Positions 1,847-19,671 of a stretch of 19,671 nt of DNA are shown here, piece by piece (positions within the stretch are counted from its first letter, which is position 1; every line of letters begins with the position of its first letter). A program made the translations under genes and the position numbers. This stretch comes from Candidatus Heimdallarchaeota archaeon (GTDB taxonomy: Archaea > Asgardarchaeota > Heimdallarchaeia > Heimdallarchaeales > Kariarchaeaceae). Under the pieces are notes generated by a model. The model was not told the origin of the DNA. It saw nothing but the letters and a program-made list of their open reading frames with translations, and did not search any database. The stretch is taken from NCBI GenBank assembly GCA_015523565.1, contig WAKA01000179.1, positions 1-19,671 of the forward strand, read 5' to 3'.

Positions 1847-3265
1847 GTGGCAGGGAAACCTCCTAACTTAGACTATAAACCCCCTTCAAAAGAGGGGAAA
1901 AGTTCATCTCCCCCGAACCTAGACTTCAAGCCCAGTTCCCAGCCCAAGTTGGATTCCCAACCAAATCCTGAAACGGAACAGACCAAGGATGGTCAAAAAA
2001 AGGTCATTGGTCCTCGAAGAGGTTCTCCCACAGTCATTCCAGAGAAATGGGATTTTTCCAATTATTACAAAAGAAAATTTGATCCTAAGGCATATCAAGA
2101 GCGGTTCCGTGCAAGGAATAAATTTGTTTCCATCAATAGGCTTCTATTAAGGGAAATTACTCTTATCTTACAGGCAAGGTTCAAGACAAAGCTGGAATTC
2201 CCTTCCATGAACATGCTTATTGCAGGTGTAATTGATCAAGCCTTTAAAGCTCAACTTCAATATCTGGACAGCATGATTGACCTTATCAAGGCTCATCGAG
2301 ATCCTCTCTTTCTGGATCTGGTCAGCAGTGGAGATACTAATCCAGACGTTCGCCCCACTTCATTTGAAAATGCCAAAAACCTTGTTATCCGTGAGTATCA
2401 TAGATATTTGGAAGACCTTCCTTCCATTGACTTCATGGATTATTTTGAAGAAGAATTCAAACGTCTGAAAGATGCGAGACTATTCAGTCGTCTTGGATTT
2501 TGGCAACTTTATACACTTGGATTACTATTAGAATACTGGGATCGTGAAGAAACCTTGATGCAAGTTGATGCAAGTCCATTTTTCACCTTTTTAGATGATT
2601 TGTTGATAGACTCAGACATTCACCGAAGGGTGGTGGGTGTAATCTTGCTTTTTGCCTATACCTTGGTAAGAAACACCCCTGATTTTCTACTAAGCTGGAA
2701 TCATTTTACATTAATTCCCAATGTCCTTCGAAACGGGTATGTGATAAATCCGTGGCTCAGGACACGATATGGCTCCCCTACTCAAAAGGGTGTAAAGTAT
2801 GAAAATTTCCTGAAATATTTCTTCCGTTCATTCGGCAAAATCCATGGTCGTGCTCCTGATATGCCTGGTGGTCCTCGAGAGGGATTTAAAGATTGGTTGG
2901 AACGGACTTTTGAAGAGATGGAACGACTTTTGTCCATTTATCCACTATTTCAGCATGAGGGTCAACCGATGATTATGGAGGCCATTCTTTTGCAATTAAG
3001 CCGTGAGCTTGAAAGTGAGCTGGTTTTACGTGAATATGACCGTGACGGTGTTCTCATATCCCATCCAAAATATGCAGATTATGCGTTTCCTCTACTCCAA
3101 TGGCTACAAAAGCTTAGTGAAAACAGGGAAAAGGCAGTCAACATTACGTCCATATCTGAAAAAGGAAAGAAATACATTCTTGATCAAGAGCATTTACGGC
3201 TTATACCCTATGCAATCAAAAAACTGAATGCCAAAGGTGAGAAATTTGTCCAACCATGGTTTTGA
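1847..3265 (+). CDS. Hypothetical protein (472 aa) with a Pro/Ser/Lys-rich N-terminal tail and a predicted mainly helical body
   Basis: Long uninterrupted ORF fitting between trm5 and the convergent fahA. No family motif recognised. Confidence 0.8.
   Translation: MAGKPPNLDYKPPSKEGKSSSPPNLDFKPSSQPKLDSQPNPETEQTKDGQKKVIGPRRGSPTVIPEKWDFSNYYKRKFDPKAYQERFRARNKFVSINRLLLREITLILQARFKTKLEFPSMNMLIAGVIDQAFKAQLQYLDSMIDLIKAHRDPLFLDLVSSGDTNPDVRPTSFENAKNLVIREYHRYLEDLPSIDFMDYFEEEFKRLKDARLFSRLGFWQLYTLGLLLEYWDREETLMQVDASPFFTFLDDLLIDSDIHRRVVGVILLFAYTLVRNTPDFLLSWNHFTLIPNVLRNGYVINPWLRTRYGSPTQKGVKYENFLKYFFRSFGKIHGRAPDMPGGPREGFKDWLERTFEEMERLLSIYPLFQHEGQPMIMEAILLQLSRELESELVLREYDRDGVLISHPKYADYAFPLLQWLQKLSENREKAVNITSISEKGKKYILDQEHLRLIPYAIKKLNAKGEKFVQPWF
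1859..1963 (+). repeat. Short peptide repeat PPNLDYKP / PPNLDFKP / QPKLDSQP in the N-terminal tail of the 472-aa protein
   Basis: Copies 1 and 2 are cct cct aac tta gac tat aaa ccc and ccc ccg aac cta gac ttc aag ccc: nearly identical peptide with mostly synonymous DNA differences. Confidence 0.7.
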
Positions 3266-3305: not shown

Positions 3306-4583
3306 TCAACCTATGGAAGGGAGAACTTGTGAACTGACTTCTCCAAACCCAATTCTGAAATGCTCATTTTCCGCGTAAGCCTTCATAATAACCCTGTCAT
3401 AGTCTTGCAGTGCTTTTCTCGTTTCACCATTTGACAATTGCAATGGTTCCTTGCCTCTCCATGTCAATTCAAGAAGGCATGCCCTTGTTTCCTTTTCTGG
3501 ACCGCTTATTGTTCCTGTCCCACATAGGTCTCCTGTTCTCATATTGCATCCTGTCACTGTATGATGTGCAAGCATTTGATCGATGGTCCAATAAAGGTAC
3601 TTGAAGTTTGATCTCATTATTCTTTCAGGCTCTTTCATTTCTATTGTCTGTAGATATGTTTCAAGGACAATGTCATAAGTCAATGGATTTGACGATTTCA
3701 AATAATCCATAGGCATTGGGTCTTGATCCTCTTTTTTGACCATAAAGGGTTCCAATGCCTCTAGCGTCACTACCCATGGGGAAATGGATGTTGCAAAGTT
3801 TTTTGCAGTGAATGGACCAAGTGGTCGATATTCCCATCCTTGAATGTCCCTTGCACTCCAATCGTTCAAAATCACCAATCCAAAAATATGGTCTTTTGCC
3901 TTTTCTACAGGGATTGGATGCCCTAATTCATTTCCAGTGCCAACAACAAATCCCATCTCAAATTCAAAGTCAAGGAATCTTGTCGGCGAAAAGAATGGTT
4001 GCTCTGCACCGCTTGGCTTGATTTGTCCTTTCGGACGGACAATGTCTTTTCCGCTAACAATTACTGAACTTGCCCTTCCATGGTATCCCACTGGCAAATG
4101 AAGCCAATTTGGTTGCAATGCATTTTCTGGACCCCTGATTATTGTTCCTACATTTGTTGCATGATATCTGCTGGCATAGAAGTCTGTAAATTCACCGACT
4201 CTGAATGGCAAATGCATTTTCGCATTTTTTTGATGTACCAACGCTTTCTTCTTCAGGTCTTCATTGTCTTTCAATTCATTGTTTTGGGTGTCCTGCAATA
4301 GCTTGGAAATTCTTTGCCTGACTTTGGTCCAAATCTCCTTGCCTTTCGCCATGAATGGATTTAATTCAGGAAGGTGGAAGACTGGTTCATCCAATATGTC
4401 CGAAAACAATCCATTTGCTTCAACGACTTTTAAATCAAGGATGTAGTCTCCTATTGCCACCCCCACCCTTGGGTTTTTCTCATCGGTTGAAAACACCCCA
4501 TAAGGGAGATTTTGAATGGGGAATTGTGTATTCCTGTCATATTGTATGAATGATTTTAACTTCGGATCTGTGGTTGACCCCAT
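3306..4583 (-). CDS. fahA: Fumarylacetoacetase (full-length FAH)
   Basis: FPIQNLPYGVFS, TDFYASRYHATNVG, WLHLPVGYHGRASS, LDFEFEMG, NDWSARDIQGWEYRPLGPF and GTGTISGP motifs. The 425-aa length includes the FAH N-terminal domain. Confidence 0.95.
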   Translation of the reverse strand: MGSTTDPKLKSFIQYDRNTQFPIQNLPYGVFSTDEKNPRVGVAIGDYILDLKVVEANGLFSDILDEPVFHLPELNPFMAKGKEIWTKVRQRISKLLQDTQNNELKDNEDLKKKALVHQKNAKMHLPFRVGEFTDFYASRYHATNVGTIIRGPENALQPNWLHLPVGYHGRASSVIVSGKDIVRPKGQIKPSGAEQPFFSPTRFLDFEFEMGFVVGTGNELGHPIPVEKAKDHIFGLVILNDWSARDIQGWEYRPLGPFTAKNFATSISPWVVTLEALEPFMVKKEDQDPMPMDYLKSSNPLTYDIVLETYLQTIEMKEPERIMRSNFKYLYWTIDQMLAHHTVTGCNMRTGDLCGTGTISGPEKETRACLLELTWRGKEPLQLSNGETRKALQDYDRVIMKAYAENEHFRIGFGEVSSQVLPSIG

Positions 4584-4715: not shown

Positions 4716-6440
4716 TTAATCGGCATAGTATTCTTCATACAGTTTGTCGAGAATATTTTCTGGTAACCAATGGTATATTGGCTCAAAATCTGGGATTTCC
4801 AATTTCTTCCCACCTTTCATCCATATAATTTTTTTAGCAACTTTTAGTTTTCCAAGCTTTTTCTGGTCTATCTCCAAATTATCTTCTTCTTCCTCATCAA
4901 GTCCGATAAAATGAAACTGCTTGTCAACCGCAAATCTCAATGCCTCTATCCTGTCATCAGTTATGACAAGATCCACTTGATCTTTCCATACCTGAAATTC
5001 ATCTTCATTGTCAATTTTTGCAAAAATATCATCTGATGCATAGTAATAGATTTTTTTGATCTTGGCTCGTTTTGCAAGTTCCTCAAACTGTTGGATTCTA
5101 TTGAATTTCCAGATGTCTCTGCTTCTCTGTTCAAATGACAGAAGGAAATCAAGATCAACGACGATAGTCTTGATTTTTGGTTCTTGTATTTTCAGGCATT
5201 TATTTTTTGTCAGGATTTGTAAGGCTTTTTTGTATCCTTTTCTGTTTGGTTTCCTTCCTGCCTCTTCAAGGATTTTCGTCCATTCGTCATAGCCTTCGTC
5301 TTCTGTAAACCCACTCCGTTTGACCCTGCTATGGAAACGGGCAACGAAAAGCGCGGTCTCATCCAGTTCTTCCATTGGCTCCAATCTCAATTGTATCAAC
5401 AAGCTCCAAGGTTCTTTCATTTTCAATTCAATTTCTGCAACTAGTTGCTCTATAGGGCTCTTTTCAACATCCCTGATAAGCTTGAACATCTCCAAGTCTG
5501 CAACAAGTGTCCAGATGCCTGTTTCATTGTTCAGTGCCAATCCTTCCTCTATAAGCTCCTCTACAATTTGGTATTTGTTTGAAAGGCTTTCAGAAACAAG
5601 TTTCTTGGCTGTAGTGTCGATTTCAACAAATTGGTTCAAGCTTTCGCTGATTGTTGGGTTGATCCATTTGATGAGTGCCACTGATGTCAAGAACACAAGA
5701 AACGGAACTTCATTGTGAAGTTTTGTTTTTTCGCCTTCTGGGAGATTGACAAGTACCCAGAAATCAGATGCAGGAACTTCAATTCCAGTTATTGCTGTTT
5801 CATTGGTTACTGCAAGTGGTATAATTCCATTTTCCAGCTTTTTCCCTTCCAACTTCGCAAGATGTAAAACTCGATTTGCGACATCGGCAGTTACATCTAG
5901 TTCTTCAAAGCTTTGAGGCTTGACATTGAGCTCTCCAAAAAATAACTTGAAGGGATATGCTGTCACGAAAACATTGAGGTCTATTATTTCTTCGAGAACC
6001 TTGAGGTTTTGGTTCATTGCCTTTCTTCCTGTATCTGAAATTGAATATTGCACAAGTTCCGGTCTATTGAGGATCTTTTGCAGTTCAGGACTTTTCCAAT
6101 CCTCTCCAAATTCATTTTCCAGACGTTCAAGGTTCTTTTCAAGGGCAGTTCTGTCAAAATCCACAATGTTTAGAAGACCTGAATCTTCCAGTTTTTGTAA
6201 TACTTCATTGATTACATGCAATTGAAAGCCAGAAATGGCATGAATCTCCACTCTTGTTATTTTCTCAAAAGCATCTGCACTTTTCAATATCAGCCATTCA
6301 ATTGGTTCCAATTGGGTATGTGTTTTAGCCTCAATTTTGGTGAACTTGAATGACGCAACAGGTGTTTTTGTTTTCAGAATGAGTGATGTTGAAAAATCTT
6401 TGTTGTGCTTTGCCCAATTCCTTAATGTCGTTGAAAACAT
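4716..6440 (-). CDS. Helicase-associated protein: N-terminal winged-helix region and C-terminal putative NYN/PIN-like (Zc3h12a/Regnase-type) nuclease domain
   Basis: 574-aa ORF starting 12 bp after the helicase stop, with a GAGGAG RBS. LEPIEWLILKSA...ITRVEIHAISGFQLHVINEVLQKLEDSGLL and YSISDTGRKAM resemble a wHTH and its wing. C-terminal TIVVD...KIYYYASD...IDNEDEF...TDDRIEALRFA...HFIGLD follows the NYN pattern. The ORF is solid; the domain calls are by eye. Confidence 0.6.
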   Translation of the reverse strand: MFSTTLRNWAKHNKDFSTSLILKTKTPVASFKFTKIEAKTHTQLEPIEWLILKSADAFEKITRVEIHAISGFQLHVINEVLQKLEDSGLLNIVDFDRTALEKNLERLENEFGEDWKSPELQKILNRPELVQYSISDTGRKAMNQNLKVLEEIIDLNVFVTAYPFKLFFGELNVKPQSFEELDVTADVANRVLHLAKLEGKKLENGIIPLAVTNETAITGIEVPASDFWVLVNLPEGEKTKLHNEVPFLVFLTSVALIKWINPTISESLNQFVEIDTTAKKLVSESLSNKYQIVEELIEEGLALNNETGIWTLVADLEMFKLIRDVEKSPIEQLVAEIELKMKEPWSLLIQLRLEPMEELDETALFVARFHSRVKRSGFTEDEGYDEWTKILEEAGRKPNRKGYKKALQILTKNKCLKIQEPKIKTIVVDLDFLLSFEQRSRDIWKFNRIQQFEELAKRAKIKKIYYYASDDIFAKIDNEDEFQVWKDQVDLVITDDRIEALRFAVDKQFHFIGLDEEEEDNLEIDQKKLGKLKVAKKIIWMKGGKKLEIPDFEPIYHWLPENILDKLYEEYYAD

Positions 6441-6446
6441 GTTTTT

Positions 6447-6452
6447 CTCCTC
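6447..6452 (-). promoter_or_regulatory. Shine-Dalgarno site (GAGGAG) for the 574-aa gene
   Basis: The minus strand reads TAA-GAGGAG-AAAAAC-ATG between the helicase stop (6453) and the start at 6440. Confidence 0.75.
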
Positions 6453-9134
6453 TTACAAAAACCTGATTTTTCTGACAAGCTTATGCTGTTGCGTATACTT
6501 TGCCAATTCCTTGAGAATGACCATTTTGTTCTTTGGTGTTCTGAGTTGCTTGAAGAACCTATGGTTCCCTATTATCAGGAGGTTGTGTTTCGCCCTTGAA
6601 AGACTTACATTAATCCTCTGAAGATTCTTAAGGAATCCAATATTCCCTTTTGTATTGCTCCTTGTCAGGCTAAGCAATACAATGTCCTGTTCTTGTCCCT
6701 GAAACCTATCTACAATGCTTACCCTTATCTTGATCGGTTGGTCAGGGACATTGTATCTCCATCCCCTTTCAGGGATAAGACCTTCCAACAATCTCAATTG
6801 CCTGTTTATCTCTCTGGACTGATCTGCATAATATGTGATCACTCCAATTGTCAAGGGTTTTTCCTCAGAAAATCCTAATGCTTTCGCGTCTATTTTGGTA
6901 AAAGCCGACACAATTTCTGCAATAGTGTCTGCTTCTGCAATGTTTTTGTATCCTTTCCATTTGCCGGGACTTTCATGTGGATTTGGATAATTCTCTGTGG
7001 AGATGAACACCATTGGCTCTGTAATTTCTTTTATTCCCAAGCTTTTGACACGTGGCAGTTTAAATCCGTGGGAAGCCGCATCGTCTGATGTTTTCAGGTT
7101 TCCATGATAGATTGTCTCATTAAGGAAATTGGCAAGGATTGCAGGCATTCTGTGCTGGTATTCCAATTTTGCATTTCTTGATTGGTCTACCCGTTGCAAA
7201 AAGTAATGGAAACAACTTCCCAAGGCTAGGTTAACCATTTCTTCAACAGACTGTATTGCTTTCTTATTATAGTTCAAGAGGTTGACTATTTTATCCCAGT
7301 GGTTCTCTGTTTCTCCTTCTGTCAATGCATGCAATTCCTCATGGAACCTTCGCAGTTGTCCCACTAATTCATTGGTTTTTTCATTATACAGATCCTCTCT
7401 TGAAGATTTTCCTTTCTCCTTTCCGTTGTTTTTTGTTTCCTCAAAATACCGCTGAACGTAAATCCTAAGTTCTTGGTCATTGACATAAGGTGGCAGTTGC
7501 CTATGGTCTCCCACAAGTATCCATTTTCTTGCCCTGACCGCAGGAACCAGAAATTCCATCACAGTTGCCTTGCTTGCCTCGTCAATTATGAGCATGTCAA
7601 AATTGATGGGGTTTTTGTCTGATTTTTCATAAAATCTTGCAATGCCTATTGTTGTTCCACATACTAGATTTGCTTGGTCAAGGACAAGATTTTCAAAATA
7701 TCTCCTTTCCTTTTGCCTCATTCTTTCCAAAAATTCCCCTTGAATCTCTGTAATGGTCTTATCTGCCCCATGAGCCTCTGAAAATGCTGGCAGTGTATCT
7801 TTTATATCATATACCCTATCCTGCAACCTGTACTTCTTCAAGTGACTTGGCATGTATTTTCTTCCCCCAACCCTTACAGCAACGACTCCTTTCTCTTCAG
7901 CAACCCTTTCAAGCACATTGTCAACTGCAACATGTGTTGGGGCAACCATCAGGACCCTTTTGCCATTGGCAACCATGTGCCTTATTATTTCAACAATCAC
8001 TGTGGTTTTTCCTGTCCCTGGTGGTCCATGTATTAAGGCAATATCGTCCGTGCTCAAGGCCAAGTCAATTGCCTCTGCTTGTCCACGTGAAATCTCCACC
8101 GCATGGGAAATGTTCGGGTGGAAATATGATCTGGGAAAAGATTCTGCTGGCGGCAATCCCCAAGGTCTAATTAACAGATCCGCAAGTTTGGAATATGTTT
8201 GGTTGTTTCTGCTGATAAGCAAGTTTACAGCCTGCATTTTTCTTCTGTTGCTTGCAATGTCCCCTTCCAGGAACAGTGTCCCCTCATCCGGCCAATCATC
8301 AATCCTGTCACCATCCTCCACTATGATTGTCTGCTCTGCCTCGTCATAGTCTGCAACTCTTACGGAGTAATACACGTTTCCTTCTTTGTCCTTGGCTGAA
8401 ATCTGGTTCCCGCCCTCAGTAATTTGCCGAGGGGGGTCTGTCACTTCAAGATAGCCTCTCTCATCATCACTTGGAAGTTTTGAATATGCACACTGTGGAC
8501 GATACTTTGGATCTTTGATGGACAGTCTTTCATAATATAAAAATTCAAGAAATGGCTGGAATGACCTGTTAAGAAAACGCTTGTAGTCAATGTCCATTTG
8601 CTCCCTCTCATTTTCCTTCATCCAAGATATGGCAGAAAACAAAATCTTTCCCAATGATGCCCTGTTGTTCATGCTTGCATTGGATGCCATGAACAGTCTA
8701 ATGGGATAATCTGTTGTCGGCAACAGATGGTGCTTGTTTTTTGATGGATTTACGTTATAGACATAAACAAGAAGTAACGTTTCCTTGTTTGGATACCACT
8801 TGAATATGCCGCCAATCGTATCTGTTTCCAGCTTGATTGTCAAATCCTCATTCTGAAGCAATTGGATGACAAATCTTTCAATATCTTCAGTTTCCTCTAA
8901 GTTATCTGGAAGTTGGATGGGATCCCTGTCCAATTGAATGATTATTTTTGGTGTCCCTGCAAAGTCCTCCAATTTCAACCCTTTTTCCTCAAAAATGCTG
9001 TCCGCCTTTTTTGTGATGTTGCATGCAAGGTCAAGGACAGGTTTTTGGTAATTTATGATTTTAGAGGATCTTTTTAGCTTCACCTTTTCCATGATCAGTT
9101 TAGGCATTCTCTTTGCTTGCACGTCACGTCTCAT
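6453..9134 (-). CDS. Superfamily 1B helicase, UPF1/DNA2-NAM7-like (AAA_11 + AAA_12)
   Basis: Walker A IHGPPGTGKTT, motif Ia VAPTHVAVDNVLER, Walker B IIDEASKA, motif III LVGDHRQLPP, motif IV YQHRMP, GVITYYADQ, motif V VDRFQGQEQD and motif VI RINVSLSRAK. There is no Cys/His-rich UPF1 CH domain at the N-terminus. Confidence 0.93.
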   Translation of the reverse strand: MRRDVQAKRMPKLIMEKVKLKRSSKIINYQKPVLDLACNITKKADSIFEEKGLKLEDFAGTPKIIIQLDRDPIQLPDNLEETEDIERFVIQLLQNEDLTIKLETDTIGGIFKWYPNKETLLLVYVYNVNPSKNKHHLLPTTDYPIRLFMASNASMNNRASLGKILFSAISWMKENEREQMDIDYKRFLNRSFQPFLEFLYYERLSIKDPKYRPQCAYSKLPSDDERGYLEVTDPPRQITEGGNQISAKDKEGNVYYSVRVADYDEAEQTIIVEDGDRIDDWPDEGTLFLEGDIASNRRKMQAVNLLISRNNQTYSKLADLLIRPWGLPPAESFPRSYFHPNISHAVEISRGQAEAIDLALSTDDIALIHGPPGTGKTTVIVEIIRHMVANGKRVLMVAPTHVAVDNVLERVAEEKGVVAVRVGGRKYMPSHLKKYRLQDRVYDIKDTLPAFSEAHGADKTITEIQGEFLERMRQKERRYFENLVLDQANLVCGTTIGIARFYEKSDKNPINFDMLIIDEASKATVMEFLVPAVRARKWILVGDHRQLPPYVNDQELRIYVQRYFEETKNNGKEKGKSSREDLYNEKTNELVGQLRRFHEELHALTEGETENHWDKIVNLLNYNKKAIQSVEEMVNLALGSCFHYFLQRVDQSRNAKLEYQHRMPAILANFLNETIYHGNLKTSDDAASHGFKLPRVKSLGIKEITEPMVFISTENYPNPHESPGKWKGYKNIAEADTIAEIVSAFTKIDAKALGFSEEKPLTIGVITYYADQSREINRQLRLLEGLIPERGWRYNVPDQPIKIRVSIVDRFQGQEQDIVLLSLTRSNTKGNIGFLKNLQRINVSLSRAKHNLLIIGNHRFFKQLRTPKNKMVILKELAKYTQQHKLVRKIRFL

Positions 9135-9172
9135 TCCCTATTCTCAAGCTTCCTTTATAATGTTAGGGAATG
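9132..9172. repeat. Perfect 9-bp inverted repeat CATTCCCTA-N23-TAGGGAATG (candidate operator)
   Basis: Arms at 9132-9140 and 9164-9172. The left arm includes the helicase start codon and the spacer holds the TATA-like box. Confidence 0.7.
9153..9160 (-). promoter_or_regulatory. Putative archaeal TATA box (TTATAAAG) for the helicase operon
   Basis: Lies 19-26 bp upstream of the ATG at 9134, which fits a leaderless or near-leaderless archaeal transcript. Confidence 0.5.
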
Positions 9173-9268
9173 GGTTCGAGGAATTGCCCAATGGAATTTT
9201 GTCCAATCATTCATCGACTATTCGATATGATCACTATATTTTAATAAAGTAGTGGGAACTCTTGAAAC

Positions 9269-10513
9269 ATGCAGGAAAATCTCGATCATCATCCTGTCCA
9301 AAACGAACATCGGGGATTAATGCTTGTATTTTTTGCCGTTTTTATTGATCTTCTTGGTTTTGGCATTATCATTCCAATTCTTCCATATTTTGTAGTGGAT
9401 ACGTTACACGGTAGTGACTTACAGTATGGAATGATCCTTGCAATTTACTCTCTTACACAATTTGTATTTTCCCCATTTTGGGGAAGGCTTTCAGACAAGA
9501 TTGGTCGCAGACCAGTGATTTTGGTAGGGCTTTTTGGCTCTTCCATCTCATTCTTCGTCTTCGGAATTTCGCAAAGCATCCCTGAACTATTTTTTGCAAG
9601 ATTCTTAGCTGGATTTTTCACTTCCGCTTCACTTCCTACAGCAAGGGCTTTCATTGCAGACATTTCCCCTCCTGAAAAACGAACTGCAAGAATGGGTATG
9701 ATTGGTGCTGCATTTGGTTTAGGTTTTACATTTGGGCCTGCCATTGGGTCTTTCATGGCAAATTTCCTTGTACCTGGTTTTGAAAAATATATCTATGCGG
9801 CTCCTTCTTTCTTGTCTTCACTGCTTGCACTCTTCAATTTCATCTTTGCCTATTTCAATTTGCCTGAATCATTGCCTGCAGATTTGAGATTGGAAAAATC
9901 ACTTCGAAAACTTGAACTTAAGGAACTTGAACCGAGCAGAAACAGGATCAAATATATTTTCAGCTTTCCACAAGTTTTCCTTCTTGTTTCCCTTTTTACA
10001 TTGACAACCATGCTGTTCAGTGCTTTTGAAGCCATGTTCGCATTATATGCCAGTGAAATTGATTCTTTTTTCAATGAAAAAACTATTGGATATGCATTTG
10101 CGTTGATAGGAATTGTTGTCATTTTTGTTCAAGGGGGTTTTATCCGTGTTGTTGTGGACAAAATCGGCAATGAAAACACTGTTCTGCTGGGCTTTCTTTT
10201 CAATATCATTGGTTTTCTTCTCCTTCCGTTTGCAACAAACCGCTACCTTCTCCTGATTTTTCTTATTCCTGTAGGGATCGGACAGGGTCTATTGACTCCA
10301 ACCTTGAATTCCCTTGTTTCTCTTCGTATTCCCAAAGAAGATATGGGTGAGGGTATGGGTGTCAATTCTGGTGGTGGTGCAATTGCAAGGGTAGTGGGAC
10401 CGTTGCTTGGCGCTTGGCTTTTTGCAATAGATATCCGCCTCCCATTTTATGTTGCATCAGTAACCTTGATTGTTTTGGCTTTCATTTCCGCAGTCAAGCT
10501 AAAAAAACCATAA
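9269..10513 (+). CDS. MFS transporter, TetA/DHA1-like (drug:H+ antiporter family)
   Basis: Multiple hydrophobic segments in two blocks, VFIDLLGFGIIIPILP, motif A WGRLSDKIGRRPV and motif C-like GAAFGLGFTFGPAIG. Confidence 0.92.
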   Translation: MQENLDHHPVQNEHRGLMLVFFAVFIDLLGFGIIIPILPYFVVDTLHGSDLQYGMILAIYSLTQFVFSPFWGRLSDKIGRRPVILVGLFGSSISFFVFGISQSIPELFFARFLAGFFTSASLPTARAFIADISPPEKRTARMGMIGAAFGLGFTFGPAIGSFMANFLVPGFEKYIYAAPSFLSSLLALFNFIFAYFNLPESLPADLRLEKSLRKLELKELEPSRNRIKYIFSFPQVFLLVSLFTLTTMLFSAFEAMFALYASEIDSFFNEKTIGYAFALIGIVVIFVQGGFIRVVVDKIGNENTVLLGFLFNIIGFLLLPFATNRYLLLIFLIPVGIGQGLLTPTLNSLVSLRIPKEDMGEGMGVNSGGGAIARVVGPLLGAWLFAIDIRLPFYVASVTLIVLAFISAVKLKKP

Positions 10514-10577
10514 AAATTGCATAATTGCCATACCCCGAATCAATGCCTTAATTAAATCCTATATTATCCATATTAAT

Positions 10578-11018
10578 GTGGTAAAACAAGACAATCATGT
10601 GCCTATTAATCCAATTGCAAGGTTAATCTTGGTTGGATACATTGCCTTGGCAATTTTGACGTTTCTTCTATTGGATTTTGTCCAATGGGCAAGGGATTTA
10701 TTTGTTCAGACCTTTTTCCTGATTGAAATAAATGGTGTTTGGTTCAGCGCTGCCATTGTTGGCTATGGATTTTATGCACTTCGGAAAAACATGATGAGAG
10801 TGAAGATGACTGGTGTAAAATTAAACTTGACCCCGCAGTATCTTATTGTTTCTGCTTTCTTTTTCTTCTTCATTAAACAGGTGATTGACTTAATTCTATT
10901 TTATGGCACAAATCTCTCGTCAGTTGAACAATTTGCCTTGACAAATGTCGCGATTGTTGTTGAATTTGGAGGTTTTGTCGCAGGGGTTGCTTCAATATAT
11001 TATTCAAGAAAAGGTTGA
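10578..11018 (+). CDS. Hypothetical integral membrane protein (~4 TM helices)
   Basis: 146 aa with four hydrophobic stretches. GTG start. It ends 8 bp before the next gene. Confidence 0.75.
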   Translation: MVKQDNHVPINPIARLILVGYIALAILTFLLLDFVQWARDLFVQTFFLIEINGVWFSAAIVGYGFYALRKNMMRVKMTGVKLNLTPQYLIVSAFFFFFIKQVIDLILFYGTNLSSVEQFALTNVAIVVEFGGFVAGVASIYYSRKG

Positions 11019-11026
11019 GATGAGGC

Positions 11027-11989
11027 ATGAGCTCATTTGTAATCACAACCAAAGATGGTCCTCCCGATATTTTTGTTGAGGTTGGCAAGCCTTTTGCCAA
11101 GGATCCTTACTTGATGGCTGGAATTTTCAAGGCTATTTTTTCCATTTCAAATGAACTGACCGACAATCCGTTGCAAGTGGTTCAGGCAAAAGGCTTCACT
11201 GTTAAATTCAGGCAATTGGACAATGACTATGTTCTGATTGTTGGAAGCGACAGGCATGTTGCAGGCTTGGAACTGCTCTTGGAGCAGTCAAAGAAAATTA
11301 TTGAGGATGGGGAACGATTTAATCTTCCGCACGAGCAAATAGAGGATGAGATCAAAAAAATGATCATATCCTATTTTGAGCAAGATAGTGGAACAACTGA
11401 AACATCCTCAACGGAAAATGTTCCTTCTATTGTTCCTGTTGCACTTCAACGACTTCCGGATTCAATTCTCACCGTAATTTTTTGGGGGTTGCTGACCTTC
11501 CGTCACTTCAAATTTCCCGCCACAGGCTCACTTGATTATGACAATTACATCTCTTCCCTTTTGGACTTTTTGGGTCAACCCTGTTGTTCAAATCTAGATC
11601 AAACCTGTAGCTCATCAATTCGATTTGTTTCTGAAAAAGGTGATTTCCTCCTTGATGAGAAAGAAAAACTTTCTCCCAAAGACAAAATGATACTCAAGAC
11701 AAATACAATCAAACGTTTGCTAAAACTTAGGAAGAAATCCAATCCTCTCGAATTGAAATCAATAATCAGTTCTTCACGTGCAACAATTTCCCTGATTGAC
11801 GAAATGATTGCAGACTATCCCCATTTAACAGAGGATCAAAAGCATGAAATTGACAAATTAAGATACTCTATCGGTCTAGACCTTGAACATTATTTGGTTG
11901 AATACCTGAAACATAAAAATTATCCCTATTTGGATGAATTTTTAATGCATGCTGAAACCATGGAATGGGTTAATCCTTGGTTGCATTAA
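11027..11989 (+). CDS. Longin-like domain protein with a possible DENN-like central region
   Basis: The N-terminal ~115 aa (FVITTKDGPP...DPYLMAGIFKAIFSISNEL...LQVVQAKGFTVKFRQLDNDYVLIVGSD plus a long helix) fit the beta-beta-alpha-beta-beta-beta-alpha longin pattern common in Asgard proteins. A GAGG lies just upstream of the start. Confidence 0.6.
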   Translation: MSSFVITTKDGPPDIFVEVGKPFAKDPYLMAGIFKAIFSISNELTDNPLQVVQAKGFTVKFRQLDNDYVLIVGSDRHVAGLELLLEQSKKIIEDGERFNLPHEQIEDEIKKMIISYFEQDSGTTETSSTENVPSIVPVALQRLPDSILTVIFWGLLTFRHFKFPATGSLDYDNYISSLLDFLGQPCCSNLDQTCSSSIRFVSEKGDFLLDEKEKLSPKDKMILKTNTIKRLLKLRKKSNPLELKSIISSSRATISLIDEMIADYPHLTEDQKHEIDKLRYSIGLDLEHYLVEYLKHKNYPYLDEFLMHAETMEWVNPWLH

Positions 11990-12051
11990 TGTAGCAGAAA
12001 ACCACGTATCTTACTTTTGCTTTAAGAAGATGTAAATCCTTTAATAATCAA

Positions 12052-14145
12052 ATGACCGATGGCATGCAATATCTTTTCAATCCCAAGACTGTTGCAATTG
12101 TTGGGGCAAGCCGCAACCCCAATTCAATTGGGAGGGAAATCCTGAAAAACATTCTAGAACTGAATTTTGAGGGTCGAGTTTATCCTGTCAATCCTAAAGC
12201 CTACTCTGTAAACTCCCTGCGATGTTATGAATCTTTGTCTGCAATTCCTGATAGTGTTGATTTGGTTATCATAGTTGTTCCTGCAAAATATGTGAAAAAT
12301 ATAATGGAAGAAGCGGTTTCATTGGGTGTTAAGGCGGCTGTTATTATTACTGCTGGTTTCAAGGAAATCGGGGGAGCAGGAGCAAAACTAGAGAAAGAGA
12401 TTGCAGAAATTGCCAAGAAAGGTGGAATGAGGGTTGTCGGACCGAACTGCATGGGCATTCTCAATGCACATGAACCATACCTGAACGCCACTTTTGCACC
12501 AGTCAAACCACTTCCAGGCAAGATTGGCTTCATTTCCCAATCTGGTGCGTTGGGTGTTGTTATCATGAAATATGCAACGCAACTGAAATTGGGATTTTCA
12601 AAGTTTGTCTCATTGGGCAATAAAATGGATGTCAATGCAAATGACATGCTTAAGCTTTTTATGGATGACAAGGATACAAAGGTTATTCTTGGATATCTTG
12701 AGGCATTTTCAGATCCTGGCAATTTTGCATCAGTCGCCAAGGCGGCGTCCAAGAAAAAGCCAATCCTGATGGTCAAAAGCGGTCGGACACCCCAAGGCGC
12801 TAGGGCGGCTTCCTCACATACTGGTGCCCTTGCAGGTCAAGAATATGTGGTTTCCGCCGCAATGAAGGGATCTGGCATTATCAGGGTCAACTCGGTCAAG
12901 GAATTGTTCGATTCAGCAATCGGTTTTCTGAAGGCTCCTTTGCCAAAAGGGAACAGAGTTGCAATCCTGACAAATTCTGGTGGTCCAGGAACTCTTGCCA
13001 CTGACACCCTTATCTCATTGGGCATGGAAATTGCTGAATTAAGTGAAGAAACATTGGAAAAGCTGAAGAAGGTAATTCCCCCTGAAGCGAGCCCATTGAA
13101 TCCCGTCGACCTGATTGCCAGTGCAGATGCAAAAAGATACAAGGAAACATTGGAGATACTTTTGGCTGATGAAAATGTGGATAGCGTCATCCTTATTTTC
13201 GTCCCCCCATTGATGATACAGGCAATTGAAGTTGCACAGGCGATCAACCCCATTGTTCAGGCAAGTGACAAGCCAGTTTTGGGCTGTTTCATGGGAAGAG
13301 ATGTCATAAGGGAACAAGACCTGAATGTTGATTATCCCATTTTTGATTTTCCTGAATCTGCGGCACGTGTATTGAAAGACATGTATTCCTATTACCAATG
13401 GAAAATTACTCCTATTGAAGAACCAGAACGCCTAGTGACTGATAAGTCCTCTCTTAAGGAAGTTTCACGTATCCTCAAAAAATCAAAGGGTATGGGGTTA
13501 TTGGATCCCATCAATACACAAAAAGTTCTTGAACTGTATGGGTTGAAATTCCCTGAATCAAAAATAGTAAAAACATCTGATGAATTATTTTCCCATGCCA
13601 AAAAAATCGGCTTTCCTGTTGTTGTCAAGATAGCCTCCTCAAAAATCGAACATAAAACAGATGCAGGTGGTGTATTTCTTGACATACGGAATTTTGAAGA
13701 GCTTATTGATGCATTCCTTTCCATCCAAAAGGTGTATGATAAATTCAGCATTCCCAAGGAAGAACGTACTGTTCTAGTGCAAAAATACTATCAAAGTGGT
13801 GTTGAACTTGCAATGGGATCCACATTTGACAGGCAATTTGGGAACGTCTTGATGATTGGTTCTGGGGGGATCCTCATTGAGCTTTTGAAAGACGTGGTCT
13901 TCAGGCTTGCTCCGATTTCCCGTTCTGATGCCGTTGAAATGATTCACCAATTGCGTGGCTATCCCCTCCTTCTTGGCTTCAGAGGTCAACCACCCTCTGA
14001 CATTGACGCTTTGGTTGATGCCCTCCTTCGGATCAATCAATTGGTCTGGGATAATCCAGAGATCAAGGAGCTAGACATAAACCCAATCCTTGCATTACCC
14101 AAAGGACAGAACCCAATAATATTGGATGCACGGATAACTCTTTGA
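12052..14145 (+). CDS. acdAB: ADP-forming acetate/acyl-CoA ligase, fused alpha-beta subunits
   Basis: CoA-binding VAIVGAS...VYPVNP, GPNCMG, SQSGALG, phospho-His motif ASSHTGALAG, TNSGGPG, NPVDL, ATP-grasp HKTDAGGV and ELDINP. There is no GNAT domain, so it is not PatZ. Substrate range unknown. Confidence 0.92.
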   Translation: MTDGMQYLFNPKTVAIVGASRNPNSIGREILKNILELNFEGRVYPVNPKAYSVNSLRCYESLSAIPDSVDLVIIVVPAKYVKNIMEEAVSLGVKAAVIITAGFKEIGGAGAKLEKEIAEIAKKGGMRVVGPNCMGILNAHEPYLNATFAPVKPLPGKIGFISQSGALGVVIMKYATQLKLGFSKFVSLGNKMDVNANDMLKLFMDDKDTKVILGYLEAFSDPGNFASVAKAASKKKPILMVKSGRTPQGARAASSHTGALAGQEYVVSAAMKGSGIIRVNSVKELFDSAIGFLKAPLPKGNRVAILTNSGGPGTLATDTLISLGMEIAELSEETLEKLKKVIPPEASPLNPVDLIASADAKRYKETLEILLADENVDSVILIFVPPLMIQAIEVAQAINPIVQASDKPVLGCFMGRDVIREQDLNVDYPIFDFPESAARVLKDMYSYYQWKITPIEEPERLVTDKSSLKEVSRILKKSKGMGLLDPINTQKVLELYGLKFPESKIVKTSDELFSHAKKIGFPVVVKIASSKIEHKTDAGGVFLDIRNFEELIDAFLSIQKVYDKFSIPKEERTVLVQKYYQSGVELAMGSTFDRQFGNVLMIGSGGILIELLKDVVFRLAPISRSDAVEMIHQLRGYPLLLGFRGQPPSDIDALVDALLRINQLVWDNPEIKELDINPILALPKGQNPIILDARITL

Positions 14146-17897: not shown

Positions 17898-18959
17898 TCA
17901 TTCATATAGATTAACAATCCCTTCTTCATTAGGGGGAGGAAGTAATGCTTGGAACGCCCCTGATCTCATGAAATTTAGAAAATACATGAATATTTCTGGT
18001 GGATATGGTTTGGGAAGTTGTTCCCAATACTCTATCCAACTGTTGACATAAGAATCAAACCTTTTAACAAACTCAGGGGATTGAAGGTTTGGATTGCTTA
18101 ACCAAGAATTGGATCTTTTGGTTCCAAATCTTGCTTTTAGTTTTTGCATTTCTTTAGTGATATGAGATATAATCGGTCTTTTAGTTGGGACGCCTTCCAT
18201 CAGACCAAGAACAGAAACAATAGGTGTGAAATCGTCTATTAAAAACAGATATGAGCGTTTTATTCTTTGTCTTATCCAGTTGCAATTATCTTCAAAACTT
18301 TGATATACGTGTTCAAAATTTGAAACCAAACGGTTAATTGCCACGATTGCATTTACCCCATATTGATCAAATTTTGCAATATTTGGCTGATAAATAATGG
18401 TGTTTTTTAGATGTTCGCGTAATCTTTCATGGATGGCCACGCCGTAAATACCAGATTTCATGAAGTAATTGTTTGTTGAAATTATTAAATCTTGCAATTC
18501 GGGGTGGTTTGACTTGTAATAGATATATTTGCCGTTATTAATTACCTCATTGTCTTCAATGAATTCTTGAGTGACTGAATACATTTCTTCAAAAACAGTT
18601 TCTAAATTACGTATCTGATCAACAGTTTCTTGAGTGATATGTGGATTCTCCAGATTCAACGGTAATTTAACCGCTAATTTTTCTAAAAGATCCATTGTCT
18701 TAGTAACCTCGCTTGTGAAATGGAAACGACCTTTCATTCCAAAGTTGCGTCTTTGAAGATTTGAGGTGTTTTTCACAGTCAACAGTTCCTTCAGAGAAAA
18801 CAATATGAACGGTAAATCAGCGGGCTCCCATTTCGGCAATACCTTTACAGTCTTGGTGTTTGAGAAAATATCATATAGGATATACCCATCTCTGTTTTTG
18901 GTATATTCAAAATAAGAATCTTCACTATTGTAAGGCGAATTGGGATAAAAACAAGCCAT
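17898..18959 (-). CDS. Hypothetical protein (~353 aa, no recognised family)
   Basis: Long ORF in AT-rich DNA where chance ORFs are short, preceded by a canonical TATA box. Start is ATG 18959 or TTG 18965. Confidence 0.75.
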   Translation of the reverse strand: MACFYPNSPYNSEDSYFEYTKNRDGYILYDIFSNTKTVKVLPKWEPADLPFILFSLKELLTVKNTSNLQRRNFGMKGRFHFTSEVTKTMDLLEKLAVKLPLNLENPHITQETVDQIRNLETVFEEMYSVTQEFIEDNEVINNGKYIYYKSNHPELQDLIISTNNYFMKSGIYGVAIHERLREHLKNTIIYQPNIAKFDQYGVNAIVAINRLVSNFEHVYQSFEDNCNWIRQRIKRSYLFLIDDFTPIVSVLGLMEGVPTKRPIISHITKEMQKLKARFGTKRSNSWLSNPNLQSPEFVKRFDSYVNSWIEYWEQLPKPYPPEIFMYFLNFMRSGAFQALLPPPNEEGIVNLYE

Positions 18960-18981
18960 CTCCAAAAAAAGATGTTCCGAA

Positions 18982-18991
18982 TTTATATAAA
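18982..18991 (-). promoter_or_regulatory. Archaeal TATA box TTTATATAAA for the 355-aa orphan gene
   Basis: Consensus TTTATATA located 23-32 bp upstream of ATG 18959. Confidence 0.65.
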
Positions 18992-19142
18992 GCTGTTTGG
19001 ACTATGAATAGAAACCATTAACACATAAATTTTCTTTGAAATAAACTTGCTATTGAAATTTTTTTTATATCTAACATGATTGTATGCTTGTAATATTTTA
19101 TTCATTGTCCCAATAAAAATAAATTGCATGTCAAAAAAAAAT

Positions 19143-19260
19143 TTAAAAAATAATGGATTGTTTTGTGAATATTGGTAGGTTAAAAAAATCCTCCATTATT
19201 GTATGATTGAATCTAGCTATTTCACCATTAGATGGTCTTGCTTTTCCATATCTACTCGAT
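19143..19260 (-). pseudogene. Possible degraded IS481/IS3-type transposase (integrase core) fragment
   Basis: The minus strand reads RYGKARPSNGEIARFNHTIMEDFFNLPIF. This resembles the P-x-x-NG-x-IERFN-x-T-x-x-EEF segment carrying the final catalytic Glu, here changed to Ala. The match is short. Confidence 0.35.
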
Positions 19261-19671
19261 CCTAGTGAGAGTGGTGGTTCAATTGGTGGGGGGTTTACCA
19301 CTTATCTGATCCTGATTTTACGTAAAATGTAACATTCGCTAAATACATACCTCTAATTTTATTTTCTTTCCATTTTTACAATTTTGTATCCTGAAATGTG
19401 GAATAGGATTTTGTTTCATAGTTAAATGATTTTAGCAAAAATATTTGATTTGTTGCTTCATATTGTAATAATTATAATTGTTGACAACAGTCCTAATACT
19501 TGATTGTATTTTCGCTTTTTCACTCAATCATTCTATTTTGCAATTTAAGTGCTTCATCTTTGTTCAGACATAAATACAGACAAACTAAATCTGAAAAATA
19601 AAAAACGGATACTACTATTAAGCTAATTAATCTTCCTTTATATGTTGTTTATGAATCTAATGGAATATCTC

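Follow-up and report, generated by a model that had tools for sequence, protein, structure and literature searches.

The helicase–partner locus

The window studied here, the whole stretch of 19,671 nucleotides that was analysed, stems from a metagenome-assembled genome of a Heimdallarchaeial organism of the family Kariarchaeaceae (3.57 Mb in 233 contigs, about 90% complete), in line with the original prediction, made from this DNA alone, of a probable Asgard source. On its minus strand lies a pair of adjacent genes, of which the first encodes a UPF1-like superfamily 1B (SF1B) helicase and the second a protein, hereafter called the partner, whose predicted architecture is that of a winged-helix adaptor joined to a nuclease domain. 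This pair, and the nucleic-acid surveillance system to which it may belong, are the subject of this report. The locus comprises the following elements.

6453..9134, minus strand: SF1B UPF1-like helicase P0001, 893 aa, CnuH/MkoA-like, with AAA_11 and AAA_12
4716..6440, minus strand: partner P0002, 574 aa, predicted CnuE-like adaptor plus nuclease
6441..6452, minus strand: junction from helicase to partner, 12 bp with a GAGGAG ribosome-binding site, read from the sequence
9135..9268, no strand assigned: AT-rich spacer of 134 bp between the divergent genes for the helicase and an MFS (major facilitator superfamily) protein, with a TATA-like TTATAAAG at 9153-9160

The junction reads TAA-gaggagaaaaac-ATG, with GAGGAG placed 6 nt ahead of the ATG of the partner, exactly as had been described: a 12-bp gap with a ribosome-binding site, then a protein of 574 residues. 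The pair had also been credited with a candidate promoter of its own. A TATA-like element does lie in the divergent spacer, TTATAAAG being located 19-26 nt ahead of the helicase ATG at 9134, and it is plausible as a candidate TATA box of archaeal type that would yield a transcript with a short leader or none; the part of the claim that concerns promoter function, however, stays a prediction. Translation of the helicase may truly start at Met10, where its closest orthologue begins. That helicase and partner are real genes follows from the presence of orthologues of both in every genome of the family.

A UPF1-like helicase with a lineage-specific N-terminal domain

The earlier description of an intact SF1B helicase with motifs I-VI was borne out. 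Both RecA-like halves are matched in Pfam (AAA_11, 3.7e-43; AAA_12, 6.8e-40), and the SF1 motifs GPPGTGKT, DEAS, GDHRQLPP, VDRFQGQE and SLSRAK are invariant across 18 orthologues. Ahead of these motifs the protein carries an additional domain:

8097..8987, minus strand: N-terminal domain specific to this lineage, helicase aa 50-346, with many invariant residues and no Pfam match

The distribution of this domain and of the proteins discussed below was followed through 400 Asgard genomes, with 11 other Kariarchaeaceae genomes from six genera. The N-terminal domain of the helicase is present in all 11 of these and appears weakly elsewhere; it is common to the helicases that adjoin two distant relatives of the partner (P0026 and P0027, see below). 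A feature search of the atlas gave weak leads for it, namely the 1B barrel of SMUBP-2 and ZNFX1/DUF6469, and a word-based homologue search with the domain found nothing outside Kariarchaeaceae.

Heimdallarchaeia are an Asgard lineage that is often placed nearest to eukaryotes, and a UPF1-like helicase in such a host brings eukaryotic RNA decay to mind. In animals, unwinding by UPF1 licenses cleavage by Regnase-1 (PMC7145602), and for this reason it is attractive to regard the pair as a direct evolutionary relative, either ancestor or sister, of the eukaryotic combination of UPF1 with a PIN/NYN nuclease. We consider such kinship very improbable, and the helicase itself argues against it. Its match to the bacterial-type MkoA profile of PADLOC (PDLC03920; E 4.5e-115; helicase aa 226-884 against profile positions 494-1101) reached 384 bits, compared with 242 bits for the IGHMBP2-family model TIGR00376, which is under the cut-off of 349, although scores of two libraries are not strictly comparable. 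Among solved structures the nearest by sequence is IGHMBP2 (136 bits) and not UPF1 (121 bits), followed by DNA2, Sen1 and ZNFX1. Furthermore, Pfam gave no match to the UPF1 CH domain in P0001, the N-terminus of which contains few cysteines.

The partner combines winged helices with an NYN fold

True to its earlier description as unannotated, P0002 has no Pfam, PADLOC or NCBIfam match at E<=1, and at E<=10 no meaningful Pfam match appeared in any of 17 members of the partner family. When 1.8 billion cluster representatives were searched exhaustively, no more than 24 relatives came up, and about 15 of these are full length. The partner represents a protein family that is new, with about 15 clusters of sequences (50% identity), and for which a confident model could be obtained: AlphaFold2, supplied with a 17-sequence alignment, modelled P0002 with a predicted local distance difference test value (pLDDT) of 90.4 and a predicted template-modelling score (pTM) of 0.73. 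The following parts are distinguished in the model.

5736..6440, minus strand: N-terminal module, aa 1-235, consisting of a beta-hairpin, a MarR-like winged helix and then beta strands (VIA, hhalign)
5376..5615, minus strand: small alpha/beta domain, aa 276-355, high pLDDT, with invariant W310, D315-L316-E317 and E336
5181..5375, minus strand: second winged-helix domain, aa 356-420, modelled separately within aa 236-420
4776..5180, minus strand: C-terminal NYN (Zc3h12a/Regnase/PRORP-type PIN-like) domain, aa 421-555 (Foldseek, VIA, hhalign)

Within the N-terminal module the MarR-like winged helix spans aa 42-146 and has two helices inserted in its wing in the model. VIA superimposed MarR-family regulators on about 75 residues of P0002 with Z values of 10-11.5 and a root-mean-square deviation (rmsd) of 1.4-2.0 A; Pfam MarR models did not match P0002. 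The second winged helix resembled the cullin WHB domain (Z 8-9) and the winged helix of Rpa2 (Z 7.2) in a wide VIA search, with an rmsd of 1.7-2.4 A over about 64 residues. For the small alpha/beta domain between the two, neither Foldseek nor VIA returned a trustworthy match, rows for RelP and GLD-2 having a probability of <=0.3.

When the C-terminus was modelled and searched by domain with Foldseek, it proved to adopt the PIN-like NYN fold (aa 421-552 in the model), and the earlier proposal of a winged helix plus a Regnase/NYN-like fold is one on which Foldseek, VIA, hhalign and the atlas agree. The best Foldseek matches are Regnase-1, ZC3H12C and KHNYN (probability 0.99-1.00, target template-modelling score (TM) about 0.6); PRORP2 follows with a probability of 0.91-0.99 and a poorer superposition. 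VIA ranked ZC3H12C (Z 11.9, rmsd 2.8 A over 128 aa), PRORP2 (Z 11.7) and MCPIP1/Regnase-1 (Z 11.6) practically together. Aligned by hhalign with a profile of six Heimdall PF11977 domains, the NYN profile reached a probability of 93% (E 3.4e-7, 122 columns), and in the atlas a PF11977 cluster of Zc3h12a-like proteins from Thorarchaeota resembled the partner with a TM of 0.60. A shape search of the atlas placed the N-terminal part near a phospholipase D (PLD; PLDc_2) cluster and the whole model near a PIN_4 cluster, both with low TM. A profile search of the PDB with the C-terminal domain returned only noise (TLR4, primase, E>0.1), and the PF11977 model of Pfam matched none of the 17 partner members at E<=10. 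That its nearest solved structures include Regnase-1, ZC3H12C and KHNYN is the point at which the partner speaks for descent shared with eukaryotic decay; against this stands that canonical PF11977 NYN proteins exist separately in the same genomes.

Acidic residues of the NYN domain

Active-site residues were mapped via the hhalign alignment and counted over the 17 partner members. D429, the equivalent of Regnase D141, is kept in 16/17 and the additional aspartate D477 in 17/17; positions 431 and 480 (D431 and D480 in P0002) are acidic in 15/17 each. D/E495, just past strand 3 in the region of Regnase D225/D226, is found in 16/17, its register being ambiguous. By contrast, D515, which corresponds to Regnase D244, occurs in 3/17 members, all of them from the genus of the window, and is replaced with arginine in 9/17. 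The equivalent of Regnase N144 is likewise not kept, and the G-S-N and S-N-D motifs are lost, so that the partner family lacks the full Regnase catalytic set (D141, N144, D225/D226, S242, D244). P0002 itself, unlike the family overall, has an acidic residue at all four expected positions. The claim of a full acidic set thus holds for this protein and fails for the family, in which arginine often takes the place of the last aspartate.

In the AlphaFold2 model D429, D431, D477 and D/E495 are situated at the C-terminal ends of strands. Canonical PIN domains rely on three or four acidic residues, and variation at the fourth is common. Judged from the model, the three to four conserved acidic residues at strand ends are compatible with an active PIN-like site, and nuclease activity is plausible on this basis. 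The substitutions described above nonetheless allow a different view, namely that the NYN domain is a pseudo-nuclease and the partner a nucleic-acid-binding adaptor or regulator that, with its two winged helices, directs the helicase to DNA or RNA without cutting. The loss of the D244 equivalent and of the asparagine and serine of the two motifs, the ambiguous alignment of the D226 equivalent, the failure of PF11977 to match even at E<=10 and the fact that a MarR-like fold usually binds DNA would all fit this alternative, which partly overlaps the other readings. We regard it as unlikely: D429, D431, D477 and D/E495 are kept in 15-17 of the 17 members, PIN domains function with such a number of acidic residues, and P0002 keeps all four positions.

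Linkage and distribution of the pair

The full-length partner was found in 11/11 other Kariarchaeaceae genomes, with a single match per genome, and in none of the other families among the 400 Asgard genomes searched, a confinement that also weighs against direct kinship with eukaryotic UPF1-dependent decay. At every readable locus of these 11 genomes the helicase gene lies directly upstream of the partner gene on the same strand. Among the orthologues the gap between the two genes varies between -20 and +14 nt, several genera having an overlap at ATGA, and an apparent gap of 56 nt at one locus reflects a miscalled start; co-transcription and translational coupling are therefore implied. Relative to P0001 and P0002, identities across the family are 53-85% for the helicase and 29-58% for the partner, and they drop in parallel (85/58, 76/53, 67/39, 60/38 and about 54/31), as expected for co-inheritance. 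At the level of the genus the whole neighbourhood is syntenic. From genus to genus the pair stays intact and its flanks differ, with ribosomal protein S7 and Arf GTPases next to it at one locus (L003) and MR_MLE, GNAT or FtsX elsewhere; a related contig carries Arf/Ras-family GTPases.

Three weak matches (P0025-P0027) have in common with the partner only the N-terminal 170-215 residues or so. Each of them directly follows a large helicase that is 40-44% identical to the Kariarchaeaceae helicase profile, the N-terminal domain included. The relationship of their N-terminal modules to that of the partner was detected by hhalign with E 1.3e-12 for P0027 and E 4.3e-15 for P0026, and the C-terminal regions of these two proteins, which differ from that of the partner, have no NYN similarity. 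Relatives that share only this module stand directly after orthologous helicases at L048 (P0027), L051 (P0026), L056 (in G031) and L060 (in G013). The same helicase–partner adjacency is seen on short contigs in two genomes of a sister Heimdall family. A word-based search with the profile of the N-terminal module, aimed at longer proteins, found nothing outside the family.

Because distant relatives keep both the helicase and the N-terminal winged-helix module while their C-terminal regions differ, these sequences identify the two as the conserved core of the system and the C-terminal region of the partner as an exchangeable portion. Chance neighbourhood was considered and rejected, adjacency being kept in at least five divergent lineages. 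The homologues of both genes, which had been expected to be co-located, are in fact adjacent wherever they were found and overlap in several lineages.

A third gene, and possibly a fourth

One further gene, located outside the window, is associated with the pair, and a second one may be.

Contig C37, about 10325-13096 (L052:1450-4221), plus strand, outside the window: P0045, 924 aa, helical N-terminal region plus Hsp70-like ATPase
1847..3265, plus strand: P0046, 472 aa, no known family, possible associated gene

The P0045 family is present in 11/11 other Kariarchaeaceae genomes, a distribution equal to that of the pair. In six genomes (G045, G047, G048, G049, G050, G051) an Hsp70-like open reading frame (ORF) of about 880-940 aa adjoins the helicase gene divergently. 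A homologue located directly upstream of the helicase on the same strand was found at L048, where it passes the Pfam HSP70 threshold, and in G031, where an Hsp70/MreB-like ORF overlaps the helicase start; at L051 an HSP70 homologue (1.7e-15) is encoded four genes downstream of the partner. The assignment to the Hsp70-like ATPases is based on the alignment of the P0045 profile with a 991-aa Asgard protein containing a Pfam HSP70 domain (86 bits), which hhalign scored at 99.95% (E 3.9e-38, 792 columns), and on the phosphate-1 motif, whose residues D446, G448, T452 and K453 are invariant in the family. The second phosphate motif of P0045 reads N-x-N-E-N-G, while relatives have D-x-G.

In view of its shared distribution and of its place beside the helicase both in other genera and among distant archaea, the Hsp70-like ATPase is a predicted component of the same system as the pair. 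The original prediction of a two-gene unit is therefore right as far as the adjacency of the pair is concerned and too narrow in leaving out an ATPase that co-distributes with it and adjoins the helicase elsewhere. In the genome of the window itself P0045 is encoded by one copy that is unlinked to the pair and lies among genes for a peptidase, a transporter and an HD-hydrolase.

Some of the distant loci contain additional genes. In three lineages, represented by L051 (8419-13427), L058 and L059, a classical AAA ATPase (PF00004) is encoded directly ahead of the Hsp70-like gene, and the ATPases of this set gave IetA-like matches in PADLOC down to 4e-26. Between the partner and the AAA/Hsp70-like genes L051 also has genes for a small radical-SAM protein (Fer4_12, weak pVip match) and for a 190-aa protein.

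The P0046 family occurs in 9/11 Kariarchaeaceae genomes; elsewhere one marginal partial match was seen (G067, E 5.2e-4), and a search of the atlas with P0046 gave no match. In this genus its gene is found close to the pair, and in G054, G051 and G045 no more than about 1.3 kb separates it from the Hsp70-like gene, which it directly adjoins in G054. P0046 may be a fourth component of the system or a remnant of an ancestral gene cluster.

Genomic setting and possible function

The pair was said to sit between unrelated metabolic genes, and its flanks are indeed metabolic or housekeeping in nature: a fumarylacetoacetase gene follows after 132 bp, and a gene for an MFS transporter lies upstream in divergent orientation. 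Trm5/TYW2, an ADP-forming acyl-CoA synthetase, a luciferase-like oxidoreductase and a glycosyltransferase are among the other products encoded in the window. Compared with the loci L001, L019 and L020, the order and orientation of Trm5, P0046 and the helicase–partner pair are unchanged, whereas the fumarylacetoacetase gene (3306-4583, minus strand) has the opposite orientation, a single-gene inversion. Neither a tRNA nor any other Rfam feature was found in the window, and base composition does not break over the gene pair; at 18000-19671 the G+C content falls to 0.31-0.34, compared with about 0.40 elsewhere. A mobile element or defence island in the window was considered and rejected, since neither integrases, repeats or tRNAs nor base composition signal one. 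Likewise, PADLOC and Pfam revealed no defence genes near the pair in the window.

Taking into account the gene linkage, folds and distribution observed, we favour, with a probability of about 0.5, the reading that by analogy the pair would make up the helicase–effector half of a system for nucleic-acid surveillance, one that belongs to the same kind as CnuH-CnuE and Mokosh. Its role would most likely be the restriction of foreign or aberrant RNA, that is, immunity in a broad sense. The original idea of an unwind-and-cleave module is still the most economical one. In such a module the SF1B helicase would load on single-stranded RNA (or single-stranded DNA) as its presumed substrate and translocate on it with ATP, with a 5' to 3' polarity that is typical of its family. 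The partner would be tethered to the helicase in a physical complex via its elongated N-terminal winged-helix module, the two winged helices may help to hold the nucleic acid, and the C-terminal NYN domain would then cut the strand exposed by the helicase. P0045, with its helical region and Hsp70-like ATPase, most likely would sense or gate this activity. What speaks for immunity is the helicase's kinship, an effector that can be exchanged, an occurrence that is patchy outside the family, and one distant relative encoded beside IetA-like and viperin-like genes.

Several observations weigh against this reading. Presence in 11/11 other family genomes, synteny within the genus, housekeeping neighbours and the conservation of the helicase (85% identity to the nearest relative compared with 86% for acyl-CoA synthetase, the partner being at 58% and Trm5 at 56%) would be unusual for defence. 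To these are added the lack of defence genes nearby, the Hsp70-like gene that is unlinked to the pair in this genome, the rarity of the D244 equivalent and the loss of N144 and the Regnase motifs in the partner family, and the result of hhalign, which detected no significant similarity between the N-terminal module of the partner and a PLD protein from a CoCoNuT-like operon of a bacterial plasmid.

Many of the same facts suit housekeeping, that is, RNA quality control or decay acting on the cell's own transcripts, for instance stalled or aberrant ones, as a functional analogue of UPF1-dependent decay; the same helicase, NYN endonuclease and Hsp70-like ATPase would have been recruited to this task in Kariarchaeaceae. 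All 11 other family genomes, from six genera, have a single match each; the locus is syntenic within the genus and has housekeeping neighbours in each of the genera; the evolution of the helicase is as slow as that of the acyl-CoA synthetase; and signs of mobile elements or defence islands are missing. Moreover, both peptides and AU-rich RNA are ligands of Hsp70 (cited in PMC11090510), and the licensing of Regnase-1 by UPF1 (PMC7145602) provides a precedent. We hold this explanation to be possible but rather doubtful. A function general to Asgard archaea is ruled out by the absence of the full-length form from the other families among the 400 Asgard genomes searched. Outside Kariarchaeaceae the occurrence is patchy and the effector regions are variable, as in defence systems, and one distant relative neighbours an IetA-like AAA gene and a viperin-like radical-SAM gene. 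It is tempting to go further and to imagine the Kariarchaeaceae helicase, NYN endonuclease and Hsp70-like ATPase as a core machine, inherited vertically, that would survey the cell's own translated RNAs and thus be a pre-eukaryotic counterpart, possibly even a relative, of UPF1-dependent decay, yet we rate this as decidedly improbable.

Comparison with known systems

The favoured surveillance reading draws on CoCoNuT systems, in which the UPF1-like helicase CnuH is followed by CnuE, an elongated winged helix-turn-helix (wHTH)-nuclease protein that carries variable nucleases on its adaptor (Bell et al., eLife 2024; PMC11090510). Type II and III CoCoNuTs share with the locus described here, at the level of architecture, the order of a UPF1-like helicase and then a winged helix-nuclease in the same operon, often with overlapping genes, and an effector that differs between lineages. 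In Type III-A, CnuC is a HEAT protein with an Hsp70-like NBD/SBD (the parts that bind nucleotide and substrate), and some systems carry a CDC48-like AAA+ protein (PMC11090510). Here, too, the P0045 family combines a helical region, HEAT-like by analogy, with an Hsp70-like NBD/SBD, and in some relatives an AAA+ gene of the CDC48/SpoVK type stands beside the Hsp70-like gene.

The differences are equally clear. In place of HEPN, PLD or Vsr the effector is an NYN domain; no TerY-P or coiled coils were noted; and the host is an archaeon with a fixed, vertically inherited locus, whereas CoCoNuTs are 'nearly absent in archaea' (PMC11090510). Pfam gave no match for CnuB (the McrB-like NxD GTPase) or the McrC homologue (CnuC) in the ORFs scanned across the window, where those of 472, 146, 320 and 355 aa are unassigned, or in ORFs within about 7 kb on the upstream side and 4 kb on the downstream side of the Hsp70-like gene. 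AAA_5 was tried as a proxy for McrB and rejected as too general, its 21 matches in the genome all being unlinked.

When the N-terminal module was compared by hhalign with proteins encoded after UPF1-like helicases on two plasmids, one faint match was obtained (E 0.004, probability 8%). It joins the wing region of the module to a 365-aa protein of the Pontibrevibacter plasmid NZ_CP049815.1 (L053, 38729-34697), where a UPF1-like helicase, this 365-aa protein, a PLD protein and a 'sigma-54-interacting' AAA+ protein are encoded in succession. This operon looks like a Type III-C CoCoNuT. The likeness of the partner to CnuE is architectural only, because its N-terminal module has no significant match to the bacterial example.

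Mokosh type I, made up of MkoA, a helicase with a Ser/Thr kinase domain, and MkoB, a PLD nuclease (Millman et al. 2022; 10.1101/2022.05.11.491447), also has an MkoA-type helicase and a two-gene helicase plus nuclease layout. No kinase appears among the best 25 of 49 Pfam matches of our helicase, and positions 1-493 of the MkoA profile are unmatched. The partner has no PADLOC or Pfam match to MkoB, and the only match to the MkoB model in the genome is a generic PLD protein (28.5 bits, contig C50). Because kinase and PLD are both absent, the system is not Mokosh. The original remark that it was not recognised as a named system nevertheless needs correction, given the strength of the MkoA match and a layout that is that of the CnuH-CnuE module (PMC11090510). 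What lies in Kariarchaeaceae is a system without McrBC GTPase/nuclease, kinase or PLD, at a fixed, vertically inherited chromosomal locus.

In animals, UPF1 works with Regnase-1 (ZC3H12A) and, in nonsense-mediated decay, with the PIN domain of SMG6, which likewise combines a UPF1-like helicase with an NYN/PIN endonuclease, and the nearest solved folds of the partner's C-terminus include ZC3H12C, Regnase-1 and KHNYN, tied with PRORP2. Identity, however, amounts to about 10-12%; the archaeal proteins have neither a CCCH zinc finger nor a UPF1 CH domain and are encoded in an operon, whereas the eukaryotic partners are separate, unlinked genes. The earlier suggestion of a relative of UPF1-SMG6 or UPF1-Regnase decay is accordingly reduced to an analogy, the system being that of one archaeal family with scattered variants.

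Closer at hand are the archaeal PF11977 NYN proteins, with the same fold and detectable profile-profile similarity (93%, E 3.4e-7). They retain the DGSN and (T/S)ND motifs, whereas the partner falls below every Pfam threshold, and their architectures are different, examples being a membrane protein of 565 aa and a stand-alone protein of about 170 aa. PF11977 matches were found in 20/21 related genomes, and in most Heimdall genomes searched a bona fide Zc3h12a-type NYN domain with DGSN and TND motifs is carried by proteins of about 565-640 aa. The one copy that was read, from the genome of the window (G000, contig C84, L046:205-1902, plus strand), has a signal-like segment at its N-terminus, a long stretch rich in Asn, Thr and Ser, a single transmembrane helix and, at its C-terminus, the NYN domain; for a Regnase-like nuclease, anchoring in a membrane is unusual.

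Modules of a helicase and a wHTH-nuclease such as CnuH-CnuE and Mokosh have hitherto been mainly bacterial, and CnuH-CnuE is known by computation only. The Asgard version differs from them by its NYN effector, the lack of McrBC, a stand-alone Hsp70-like partner and fixation throughout a family as opposed to scatter among defence islands. With three or four genes it offers a compact set in which to study the coupling of a UPF1-like helicase to an endonuclease and the contribution that an Hsp70-like ATPase makes to such a module. The comparison bears on whether modules of this type can shift from immunity to housekeeping control of RNA, a question of interest for how RNA surveillance arose in eukaryotes.

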